The position numbers and the translations under genes are program-made. From Microgenomates group bacterium RIFCSPHIGHO2_01_FULL_45_11 (GTDB lineage Bacteria; Patescibacteriota; Microgenomatia; UBA1400; 2-01-FULL-45-11), in assembly GCA_001803465.1 (NCBI GenBank), contig MHDE01000007.1, positions 7,445-43,360 of the forward strand: a DNA stretch of 35,916 bases, in the 5' to 3' direction. This document shows, one piece after another, positions 9,256 through 14,232 of the stretch (its first letter is position 1; each line of letters opens with the position of its first letter). The notes beneath the pieces were generated by a model. It was not told the origin of the DNA. It saw only the letters and a list, made by a program, of their open reading frames with translations, and searched no databases.

Positions 9256-9284
9256 TTGACTCTCCAACAGTAAATTGCTACAAT
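9256..9284 (+). promoter_or_regulatory. Sigma70-type promoter
   Basis: TTGACT-17 nt-TACAAT with TG extension. Confidence 0.6.
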
Positions 9285-11278: not shown

Positions 11279-11851
11279 ATGATTTTGGCGGATAAGGATC
11301 TTAAGAAAGCGTTGCGGCAAAAGCGGATTATTTTTAGGCCGACTCTTGACCTAAAAACGCAGCTTGGTTCCTGCTCAGTTGACTTGAGGCTAGGAACGTC
11401 GTTTAGCGTCTTCAAACACAGCCGCTTTCCTTATATTGACCCGCATGATCCGAAGCTCTCCAGTGATATGATGGAGAGTTTAACAGTGGCTGTCGGTGAC
11501 AAATTTATCCTGCAGCCTGGTGATTTTGTGTTGGCGGTATCGATTGAGTCGTTCAAACTACCCAACAATTTACTGGCTCGGATTGAAGGTCGCTCCAGTT
11601 TGGGAAGATTGGGAATTGTGGTGCATTCGACGGCATCGATTTTTGAGCCGGGATGGGAGGGGGTAGCGGTCATGGAACTGGGGAATATGGGTAGGATGCC
11701 GGTGGCTTTGTACCCGGGCATGCGGATTGCGGCGCTAACTTTTGAAGAATTGAGTTCACCGGCAGAGGTACCGTATTCGAAGAAGAGGGGAGCTAAGTAC
11801 CTGAAACAAAAAACGCCCACCGCGAGCAAAATTGCTGAAGAGTCGAGCTAG
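11279..11851 (+). CDS. dcd: dCTP deaminase
   Basis: MILADKD, SVDLRLG, EGRSSLGRLG, PGWEG...ELGN and LYPGMRI motifs. Confidence 0.95.
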   Translation: MILADKDLKKALRQKRIIFRPTLDLKTQLGSCSVDLRLGTSFSVFKHSRFPYIDPHDPKLSSDMMESLTVAVGDKFILQPGDFVLAVSIESFKLPNNLLARIEGRSSLGRLGIVVHSTASIFEPGWEGVAVMELGNMGRMPVALYPGMRIAALTFEELSSPAEVPYSKKRGAKYLKQKTPTASKIAEESS

Positions 11852-11855
11852 TTGG

Positions 11856-11884
11856 TTGCACGAGTTGCTTTTTTTTGCTAAACT
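11856..11884 (+). promoter_or_regulatory. Promoter for the T-box leader/thrS transcript
   Basis: TTGCAC-17 nt-TAAACT with TG extension. Confidence 0.6.
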
Positions 11885-11893
11885 AAAATTCTA

Positions 11894-12049
11894 ATCCCAC
11901 TATTGATCTGGCTTACCATCCAGGGAAGCGGGCGGACTGGGACGAACCCAGAGAACGAAGTTGTCCCGATATTACATCGGGGAAATGGGGTGGAACCATC
12001 CCGATATCAATTGGGGTCCCCATGGCTAGAAGTGGCCATGGGTTTTTTT
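11894..12049 (+). promoter_or_regulatory. Compact T-box riboswitch (Thr specifier), transcriptional type
   Basis: Antiterminator ATGGGG-TGGAACC(11991-11997)-ATCCCGAT/ATTGGGGT-CCCCAT overlaps a terminator. ACC at 11915-11917 sits in the loop of a short stem. Confidence 0.8.
12018..12049 (+). terminator. Intrinsic terminator of the T-box leader
   Basis: CCCATGGCTA-GAAG-TGGCCATGGG followed by T7. Confidence 0.85.
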
Positions 12050-12064
12050 AGTAAAAAGGACATT

Positions 12065-12394
12065 ATGAATGACCAATCGGCTGAAAAGACTGTTAATCAA
12101 AGTGTGGTTAAGGAAGAGAGGATGGGAGAGACGAAGACCGTGTACAACGCCTCGGGTGGGGAAGTGTTTTGGAAGAACTTCTTGGCTGGTTTTGGCCGAG
12201 CTTTAGGAAGTGTTTTCGTGTATTTGCTTTTTCTGGGATTAATCGTTTATCTATTCACCAATTACCTGTTTCCCCAGATTAAACCATGGCTTGATCAGTA
12301 CGCCAAAGCCATTGAGGTTTTGACTCAGCAAAAAGGCGGGCAGTCCGGTAATCAACAAGAATTACAACAAATGATGGAGAAATTATATCGATAG
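12065..12394 (+). CDS. Small single-pass membrane protein (109 aa)
   Basis: SD AAGGA before ATG 12065; FWKNFLAGFGRALG plus a TM segment. The longer call (11903) runs through the T-box. Confidence 0.7.
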   Translation: MNDQSAEKTVNQSVVKEERMGETKTVYNASGGEVFWKNFLAGFGRALGSVFVYLLFLGLIVYLFTNYLFPQIKPWLDQYAKAIEVLTQQKGGQSGNQQELQQMMEKLYR

Positions 12395-12462: not shown

Positions 12463-14232
12463 ATGAAGCTTGATAACCAAGAACAACTTGAGGCATTGCG
12501 GCATTCAACTGCTCATTTATTGGCGGCGGCGGTGATGGAGTTGTGGCCCAAGGCTAAACGGACGATTGGGCCGGCGATTGAGGACGGCTTTTATTACGAC
12601 TTTGATTTCGCCGGGTACAAGTCTCCCCCGGGTGAAGCTGACTTTCCTAAGATTGAGGCTAAGATGCGGGAGTTGGTCAAAGATTGGAAAGACTTTAAAA
12701 GGGAAGAATTAACGATATCAGAAGCAAAGGCCCGGTATCCTGGTAACTCTTTTAAGCATGAACTGATTGAGGAATTTTCCGAAGGCGGAAAGAAAAAATT
12801 GAGTTTTTACACCTCGGGGAACTATTCTGATCTCTGCAAGGGCGGACATATTTCCGAACCCAGCAAGAAACTCAAATATTTCAAATTGCTGTCTGTCGCC
12901 GGCGCCTACTGGCGAGGTGATGAGACGAAGCCGGTCTTAACCAGAATTTACGGCACAGCTTGGTTTAGCCAAAAAGAGTTGGATGAGTACATTCGGCGGC
13001 GGGAGGAAGCCAAGAAACGCGATCATCGGAAACTTGGTAAGGAATTGGGACTTTTCTTAATTAGCGAAGATGTGGGACCGGGGCTTATCTTGTGGCAACC
13101 GAAAGGTAATATCATCAAAGAAGAACTGGAGAATTGGGCGAAACAGGCTGAAAAGTCTTGGGGGTATCAGCGAGTAACGACGCCGAATATTACTAAAGCG
13201 GGGCTTTACTACACTTCCGGCCATTTGCCGTATTACCAAAAGGATATGTACCCGCCGATGAAGTTAGATGACGGCGAAGAATATTTTTTGAAACCGATGA
13301 ATTGTCCGCATCATCATCAGATTTATAAGGCAAAGCCACGAAGTTATCGAGAGCTGCCGCTAAGACTGGCTGAATTTGGCACCTGCTATCGCTACGAAAG
13401 TTCAGGCGAGCTGTTTGGACTAATGCGGGTTAGAGGCTTTACCCAAAACGACTCCCATATTTACTGTACTAAAGAACAAGCAGTGGACGAATTTGTGGCG
13501 GTGATGAAGCTTCATGAATACTATTACCGGACGCTTGGCATCAACGAATATCATTTGGAGTTGGCTCTCCGCGATCCTAAAGACAGTGGGAAGTATCATG
13601 GGGATGACAAAATGTGGGCATTGGCAGAGAAATTGATGCGTCAAGCTGCAAGCAAAGTGGACATTCCTATGGTGGAGTCAATAGGCAATGCGGCTTTTTA
13701 CGGTCCAAAAATCGATTTTATTATTCACTCGTCCATCGGCCGGGAGTTTGCCATTTCGACAAACCAGATTGATTTGTATATGGGACAACGATTTAAGCTC
13801 ACCTACACTGATAGAGACGGTTCAGAGAAAACGCCGGTCATTATTCACCGGGCTCCCTTGGGTTCTCACGAACGGTTCATTGGGTTTTTGATTGAGCATT
13901 TTGGTGGAGCCTTTCCGACTTGGCTCACCCCTGTTCAGGTAAAAGTGCTGCCGGTAACCGACCGTCAGTTAGCTTACGCTAAGTTGGTAACCAAGCAATT
14001 AGACGAGGCAAATGTCCGAGCGGAAGTCGACGAGGGCAACGAAACTCTGTCGGCAAAGATTCGCGATGCCCAACTAGAAAAGGTTGCTTATATGCTCATT
14101 GTCGGCGACAAAGAAGAAAAAGAAAAGACAGTTACCGAACGGAGGAGAAGCGGCAAGGATTTTGGGGCACAACCACTGAAAAAGTTTATAGAGAGTATTA
14201 GAAAAGAGATTGAGGAAAAGACAATCAATTAG
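12463..14232 (+). CDS. thrS: Threonine--tRNA ligase (no N-terminal TGS domain)
   Basis: LRHSTAHLLA, DLCKGGH, RDHRKLG, KPMNCPHH, FYGPKID and HRAPLGSHERF motifs. Confidence 0.98.
   Translation: MKLDNQEQLEALRHSTAHLLAAAVMELWPKAKRTIGPAIEDGFYYDFDFAGYKSPPGEADFPKIEAKMRELVKDWKDFKREELTISEAKARYPGNSFKHELIEEFSEGGKKKLSFYTSGNYSDLCKGGHISEPSKKLKYFKLLSVAGAYWRGDETKPVLTRIYGTAWFSQKELDEYIRRREEAKKRDHRKLGKELGLFLISEDVGPGLILWQPKGNIIKEELENWAKQAEKSWGYQRVTTPNITKAGLYYTSGHLPYYQKDMYPPMKLDDGEEYFLKPMNCPHHHQIYKAKPRSYRELPLRLAEFGTCYRYESSGELFGLMRVRGFTQNDSHIYCTKEQAVDEFVAVMKLHEYYYRTLGINEYHLELALRDPKDSGKYHGDDKMWALAEKLMRQAASKVDIPMVESIGNAAFYGPKIDFIIHSSIGREFAISTNQIDLYMGQRFKLTYTDRDGSEKTPVIIHRAPLGSHERFIGFLIEHFGGAFPTWLTPVQVKVLPVTDRQLAYAKLVTKQLDEANVRAEVDEGNETLSAKIRDAQLEKVAYMLIVGDKEEKEKTVTERRRSGKDFGAQPLKKFIESIRKEIEEKTIN

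Follow-up and report, generated by a model that had tools for sequence, protein, structure and literature searches.

The segment at 11894-12049 of the window, by which is meant the whole stretch of 35,916 nucleotides analysed, carries a leader that reads as a real threonine T-box attenuating transcription of an operon composed of a 109-aa ORF and thrS, a reading to which its sequence features give a probability of roughly 0.85. What the analysis shows directly is that the sequence elements exist, that they are conserved and covary, that they fit the tRNA of the host and that two structures compete. The predicted combination of an ultrashort stem I with transcription termination and threonine specificity is supported, as the candidate specifier is ACC, the apparent terminator ends in a U7 tract and the distal part of stem I is deleted in the alignment to the Rfam T-box model. 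Textbooks use the T-box as their example of an RNA that senses which tRNA is present and whether it is charged; what makes the present leader interesting is its architecture and the breadth of use of that architecture in a CPR order, rather than its mechanism.

Architecture of the leader

All elements named in the original prediction were located by reading the sequence of 11894-12049, and they lie, like the other window features described here, on the forward (+) strand. The ultrashort stem I spans 37 nt (11896-11932) and consists of a base helix (11896-11901 with 11927-11932, five of six positions paired), a K-turn-like tandem GA within an asymmetric internal loop (AUUGA at 11902-11906 opposite GA at 11925-11926) and an upper helix of 5 bp (TCTGG at 11907-11911 with CCAGG at 11920-11924), which covaries among 19 thrS leaders. 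The upper helix closes an 8-nt terminal loop (CTTACCAT, 11912-11919), and inside this apical loop, where it had been expected, is the threonine specifier ACC (11915-11917), followed by the purine A at 11918. The AUUGA/GA element aligns to the UGA and GGAG positions of the Rfam model RF00230, and the motif is absent from several related thrS leaders, such as L026 and L033.

The next element is a 5-bp hairpin, CTGGG/CCCAG with the loop ACGAA (11937-11951). It had been called stem II, and the hairpin itself was confirmed, but its identity as stem II was not: it occupies the stem IIA position in the RF00230 alignment, and no complement of the ACGAA loop was found downstream, leaving no evident IIA/B pseudoknot. 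Pairing of the loop with downstream sequence is present in most related thrS leaders, as read by eye. In L051 the equivalent position is taken by a hairpin whose loop is ACGAAAC and whose stem differs in sequence, and this recurrence of the loop on a covarying stem suggests that the loop may matter. Stem III (TCCCGAT/ATCGGGG, 7 bp, loop ATTAC) was seen at 11964-11982, as proposed, and is also placed there by the RF00230 alignment.

The antiterminator occupies 11985-12023 and was recovered by a parser in the form originally described, with helix A1 (ATGGGG at 11985-11990 with CCCCAT at 12018-12023, 6 bp), the 7-nt T-box bulge TGGAACC (11991-11997) and helix A2 (11998-12005 with 12010-12017, 8 bp, loop ATCA). 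The terminator scan placed an intrinsic terminator stem of 10 bp with a GAAG loop at 12019-12042, followed by a T7 tract at 12043-12049.

Scoring against the Rfam T-box model, which had been proposed as a check, gave an alignment of the leader over the full length of RF00230 (positions 1-219) at 24.3 bits, well below the gathering score of 93, with E=0.003 for the 801 bases searched and E=9.5e-4 genome-wide. This alignment retains the model's K-turn positions, its IIA hairpin, its stem III and the T-box/antiterminator region, while 73 distal stem I positions are replaced by 5 nt and stem II is deleted (25 to 5 nt). This is the pattern that an ultrashort-stem-I T-box should give with such a model. 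Because of these two deletions standard annotation would overlook the leader: a search of the whole window at the Rfam gathering threshold returned 4 tRNAs and no T-box, and the match is visible only with E-value reporting below that threshold.

Relation to described T-boxes

According to section 6.2 of a 2020 review (PMC7583486), transcriptional T-boxes generally require a long stem I, and the available text of that review treats contact with the tRNA elbow as generally required for co-transcriptional function. The ultrashort stem I, which carries the specifier in its terminal loop and lacks a platform for binding the tRNA elbow, is attributed to Actinobacteria in the available parts of the same review and of a 2023 preprint (10.1101/2023.02.28.530422), and the latter, in those parts, has all ultrashort T-boxes regulating ileS. 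The T-box database TBDB (PMC7778990), in the portion of its description available, equates a truncated stem I with translational class II and applied the class II model to such matches, so that similar sequences may sit there unremarked. The account given with the original prediction, in which a long stem I belongs to transcriptional T-boxes and an ultrashort one to the translational ileS T-boxes of Actinobacteria, agrees with these three sources as far as their available text goes. Since that text confines the ultrashort stem I to translational ileS leaders and assigns the long stem I to transcriptional ones, the architecture in the window appears novel. The pairing of an ultrashort stem I with a transcription terminator is undescribed in the literature searched, in which no paper joining T-boxes with Patescibacteria or the candidate phyla radiation was found.

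The leader resembles the transcriptional T-boxes of Firmicutes (RF00230; Bacillus thrS, tyrS and glyQS) in its specifier with following purine, a GA element resembling their K-turn at the stem I base, a stem III, the 7-nt UGGN-ACC bulge between A1 and A2, the competing intrinsic terminator and the aminoacyl-tRNA synthetase target. It differs from them in having neither the distal part of stem I (~73 model positions, including the elbow platform) nor stem II, and in carrying its specifier in a terminal loop, whereas theirs lies in an internal loop. With the ileS T-boxes of Actinobacteria, such as that of Mycobacterium ileS, it shares, on the descriptions available, the short stem I, the terminal-loop specifier and the missing elbow platform. 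Those T-boxes are described in the same texts as translational, acting by Shine-Dalgarno sequestration, with an AUC specifier and dependence on stem II, whereas the leader in the window has a U7 terminator, an ACC specifier, a thrS target, no stem II and an unsequestered ribosome-binding site. The primary paper on ultrashort-stem-I ileS T-boxes is reportedly that of Sherwood et al. 2015. T-boxes of glyQS lack stem II, and the minimal T-boxes of this type, with neither stem II nor IIA/B, are like the leader in the window pared-down transcriptional forms; glyQS however retains a long stem I, the very part that the leader in the window is without.

Competing structures and proposed mechanism

The 3' strand of A1 and the 5' strand of the terminator have five nucleotides in common (12019-12023), and the terminator was reported by the scan, which bears out the earlier proposal that the antiterminator and the terminator are mutually exclusive. 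The calculated energy of the antiterminator is -16.8 kcal/mol, or -25.7 kcal/mol with stem III. When stem III is formed in both states, the terminator state, at -35.4 kcal/mol, is favoured by 9.7 kcal/mol over the antiterminator state, at -25.7 kcal/mol, so that the default state is 'off', as expected of a T-box.

The minimum-free-energy fold of 11894-12049 also contains stem III, and stem I is absent from this single-sequence fold of the leader. The fold pairs 11894-11908, which includes the K-turn region, with 12003-12017 in the A2 region through ~12 pairs, and this pairing of the 5' end with A2 could be either a chance product or an additional 'off' conformer. Shuffled counterparts of the 129-nt aptamer part fold about as stably as the part itself (z = -0.62). 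Both the missing stem I and this unexceptional stability weigh against the T-box reading.

According to the proposed mechanism, the nascent RNA would fold the reduced stem I, whose terminal loop would offer ACC for pairing with the tRNA-Thr(GGU) anticodon. When this tRNA is uncharged, its 3' end, UCCA, would pair with the UGGA of the bulge, and this pairing would stabilise the A1/A2 antiterminator, stacked on stem III. The antiterminator would then hold CCCCAU, the five lower pairs of the terminator that adjoin the U-tract could not form, and the polymerase would read through. If the tRNA is charged or absent, the more stable terminator would form and transcription would stop at 12043-12049. 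The binding of tRNA, the sensing of its charging state and the resulting read-through are predicted here from sequence and calculated structure. Because the distal stem I and stem II proper are lacking, binding would have to rest on the two base-paired contacts, together with any contribution that the hairpin at the IIA position and stem III make. The best reading is that the logic is that of an ordinary T-box with a reduced aptamer.

Genomic context and readout

The gene dcd ends at 11851, 43 nt ahead of the leader. A promoter had been claimed in front of the leader, and what survives of this claim is a putative promoter-like sequence at 11856-11884 on the + strand (TTGCAC, a 17-nt spacer and TGn-TAAACT), a weak match made by eye; the sigma-70 scan gave 0 sites at the leader. 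At the equivalent relative position, -10 boxes are strong in related leaders.

Downstream of the leader comes first a 109-aa ORF (12065-12394), whose product includes a hydrophobic stretch and for which Pfam gave no family above the cut-off and a lone match, DUF4199, below it. Homologues of this ORF adjoin thrS in 10 other CPR loci; in some loci the homologue lies between the T-box and thrS, whereas the T-box follows it in L016, L023 and L031. The second gene is thrS, encoding threonine--tRNA ligase (12463-14232; TIGR00418 at 659.5 bits, NCBIfam cut-off 383.65), whose product carries the Pfam domains tRNA-synt_2b, HGTP_anticodon and tRNA_SAD. The leader is therefore upstream of thrS, as had been stated, but not immediately so, since the conserved 109-aa ORF comes first.

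An alternative is that the leader is a real T-box aptamer with a readout other than termination, or beyond it, such as translation, mRNA processing or stability, or the control of read-through from dcd. Part of the attraction of this idea is that the ultrashort stem I is otherwise known only in translational T-boxes, and the proximity of dcd, together with the want of a promoter passing the sigma-70 scan, would suit a dcd transcript. Some related leaders, such as L038, L116 and L165, moreover have no T-run and carry a Shine-Dalgarno-like GGGAG or GGGGG directly 3' of the antiterminator. The idea is nevertheless improbable for the leader in the window, where the hairpin detected by the terminator scan has T7 behind it, and where the AAGGA that precedes the ATG at 12065 is situated beyond the terminator and outside both alternative helices, and nothing sequesters it. 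A hairpin followed by a T-run is also found in 51 of the 70 leaders of the order. Transcription attenuation of the 109-aa ORF and thrS thus remains the preferred reading.

Conservation among thrS leaders of relatives

The thrS gene was located in 40 genomes of the same order, and at the 29 loci that were usable, 1.5 kb of upstream sequence was scanned for TGGNACC. A leader of the same design was present at 11 of these 29 loci, that of the window included, and at 8 of 53 bacterial thrS loci taken from named Microgenomates and other CPR records. The resulting set of 19 thrS leaders, that is the window and 18 others, was picked by the TGGNACC pattern and then by eye. Two candidates were left out, L011 on account of its TGGGACC lying inside the coding sequence of a homologue of the 109-aa ORF, and L068 as an unclear case.

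Conservation of ACC and TGGNACC in orthologous leaders, on which the original prediction had staked the reading, was found throughout the collected set. ACC lies inside the hairpin loop in all 19 leaders, the third ACC column of the alignment reading 18/19 because MAFFT shifted one row, and the bulge is UGGAACC in 19/19, although the search pattern had left N free. Covariation of the stems was likewise borne out for the upper helix of stem I, the only helix recovered by RNAalifold from the raw alignment, with compensatory changes at 5/5 pairs. In this helix 82.1% of cells are paired, compared with 55.2 +/- 3.7 in shuffles (0/500 of these reach 82.1%) and with at most 53.7% in controls in which the register was slid. 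A1, the bulge and A2 were parsed in 19/19 leaders with many pair types per position; because the parser demands pairing, these pair types show variety and are no independent test.

In the two relatives nearest by ThrRS (72% and 63% identity), the 1.5 kb ahead of the gene contains no TGGNACC, and the genome of one of them has no RF00230 match anywhere, so that conservation of the leader is patchy.

A different arrangement is visible in 9 of the 19 leaders (L014, L016, L021, L030, L031, L034, L039, L043 and L112), in which the antiterminator is nested whole within the terminator hairpin. The U-tract of these leaders is adjoined by an outer helix of 6-8 bp (P0), whose 5' strand follows a conserved AAUUAAG and closely precedes A1, and which covaries between leaders (ACCAC/GUGGU, CUACC/GGUAG, AGCUAC/GUAGCU). 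Three of the nine have no canonical alternative. Strand competition cannot account for switching in a nested sub-class of this kind, which would need some other principle, perhaps a bound tRNA that sterically blocks closure of the outer helix.

The host genome, its tRNAs and its other leaders

The host is an ultrasmall CPR bacterium of groundwater or soil, with an assembly of 1.08 Mb that is 94% complete and has 45.5% G+C. The named relatives nearest by ThrRS are Woesebacteria, Collierbacteria, Gottesmanbacteria, Roizmanbacteria and WWE3, all Microgenomates-type CPR. The genome has tRNA-Thr genes with the anticodons GGU, UGU and CGU, and the specifier ACC is complementary to the anticodon of tRNA-Thr(GGU). 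All three genes have T at the discriminator position, and the U73 on tRNA-Thr(GGU) that had been predicted from the UGGA bulge is thus present.

RF00230 has three matches in the genome, the other two lying ahead of trpS and argS. The Trp leader (31.2 bits) precedes a racemase gene and then trpS, holds UGG in its loop and has a UGGC bulge facing a tRNA-Trp with G73; the Arg leader (24.1 bits) precedes a 179-aa ORF and then argS, holds CGC in its loop and has a UGGU bulge facing a tRNA-Arg(GCG) with A73. Together with U73 and UGGA for Thr, the bulge agrees with the discriminator in 3/3 leaders. The A1/A2 geometry with a T-run is present at 4 of 402 TGGNACC sites genome-wide, all four upstream of aminoacyl-tRNA synthetase operons, namely the Thr, Trp and Arg leaders and one leader ahead of a HAD-type phosphatase gene and serS.

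The serS leader lies outside the window, on the minus strand of contig C30 with its bulge (UGGC) at 9282. It has stem II and IIA/B-like elements and was overlooked by the Rfam genome search. The Trp leader (L186, G000:C22:44050-47030) has an additional hairpin between the upper and base helices of its stem I; the racemase gene behind it is an amino-acid racemase gene, and the trpS that follows has an N-terminal addition of ~160 aa.

T-boxes across the order and phylum

At E <= 0.01, RF00230 matches 32 of the 41 genomes of the order, with 70 matches in total. In six genomes of the order a match exceeds the gathering score, which shows that T-boxes of the ordinary long kind also occur in the order. 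In a sample of the phylum, 44 of 151 genomes have an RF00230 match at E <= 1e-6 and in 5/151 a match passes the gathering score. The phylum commonly has T-boxes, and the unusual part is the architecture, not their presence in CPR. The original remark of knowing no characterised T-box in CPR agrees with the literature searched, in which no paper was found, yet T-boxes are common in these genomes and some exceed the Rfam threshold.

The ORFs downstream of the 70 matches were named with NCBIfam, and for 49 of the 70 leaders the name of a downstream gene specifies an amino acid. By eye, 39 of these 49 labelled leaders have a short stem I with the cognate codon in its terminal loop; the remaining ten comprise six long canonical T-boxes and four unclear cases. 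The loop codon is GGC ahead of glyS (9 leaders), AUC ahead of ileS (7), CGC ahead of argS or argH-argG (6), UGG ahead of trpS (4), UCC or AGC ahead of serS (4), ACC ahead of thrS (4), CCC ahead of proS (2), and UGC, GAC and UAC ahead of cysS, aspS and tyrS (1 leader each). A blind two-helix parser found the cognate codon in the loop of 29/49 leaders, compared with 11.1 +/- 2.7 after label shuffling, and none of 20,000 shuffles reached 29; this parser often picks the wrong hairpin, which makes the test a conservative one. The expectation that the loop codon would track the downstream synthetase was borne out by both counts across the order.

The 51/70 leaders with a T-run preceded by a stable hairpin, 3' of the bulge, include 43 of the 57 that score below 60 bits. 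These terminator calls combine the T-run with a fold test, and a stricter finder gave 23/70.

That the leader in the window is a decayed or chance T-box look-alike, a plain dcd terminator with fortuitous motifs and no tRNA regulation, is highly improbable: its low Rfam score (24.3 against a gathering score of 93), an aptamer part of unexceptional stability (z = -0.62) and closest relatives without such a leader would fit that idea, but ACC and UGGAACC are kept in 19 leaders whose helices covary, the U73 discriminator matches the UGGA bulge, loop codons follow the downstream gene for 10 amino acids, and antiterminator geometry is confined to 4/402 TGGNACC sites, all of them in aminoacyl-tRNA synthetase leaders.

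With the threonine T-box reading retained for the window, the wider proposal, for which the chances seem evenly balanced, is that in Microgenomates-type CPR much of the regulation of aminoacyl-tRNA synthetases depends on a family of miniature T-boxes. Members of the family would be ~110-160 nt long, with a terminal-loop specifier in an ultrashort stem I, no elbow platform and often no stem II or III, would serve at least 10 amino acids and would act by transcription termination. If this is true, a co-transcriptional T-box decision does not need the elbow contact. The rules at stake, in the form given by the available portions of the literature, are that transcriptional T-boxes need a long stem I for fast capture of the tRNA and that an ultrashort stem I denotes a translational ileS T-box. 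A natural family breaking both rules would give a minimal scaffold for testing which contacts are required, would raise the question of which polymerase kinetics or tRNA levels in CPR permit the switch, and would supply very small, programmable tRNA-sensing modules. The leaders also indicate that these reduced genomes, in which few regulators are known, retain RNA-based control of their aminoacyl-tRNA synthetases and of some amino-acid genes (argH/argG, trpB), most of which escapes standard Rfam thresholds.

Several further leaders of the order stand apart from these short forms or extend the range of targets. Canonical glyS T-boxes are present as L119 (97.2 bits) and L127 (66.2 bits), and argH-argG and trpS-trpB are further T-box targets. 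L176 and L177, on contigs C49 and C7 of genome G023, are both 249 nt long, score 29.6 bits and have identical leader printouts, one lying ahead of valS and the other ahead of ileS, which points to either a duplication or an assembly artefact. High-scoring long canonical T-boxes (L116, L128, L130, L136 and others) lie ahead of an unnamed ORF of ~340-375 aa, which in turn precedes a gene for an ArgE/DapE-family deacylase.
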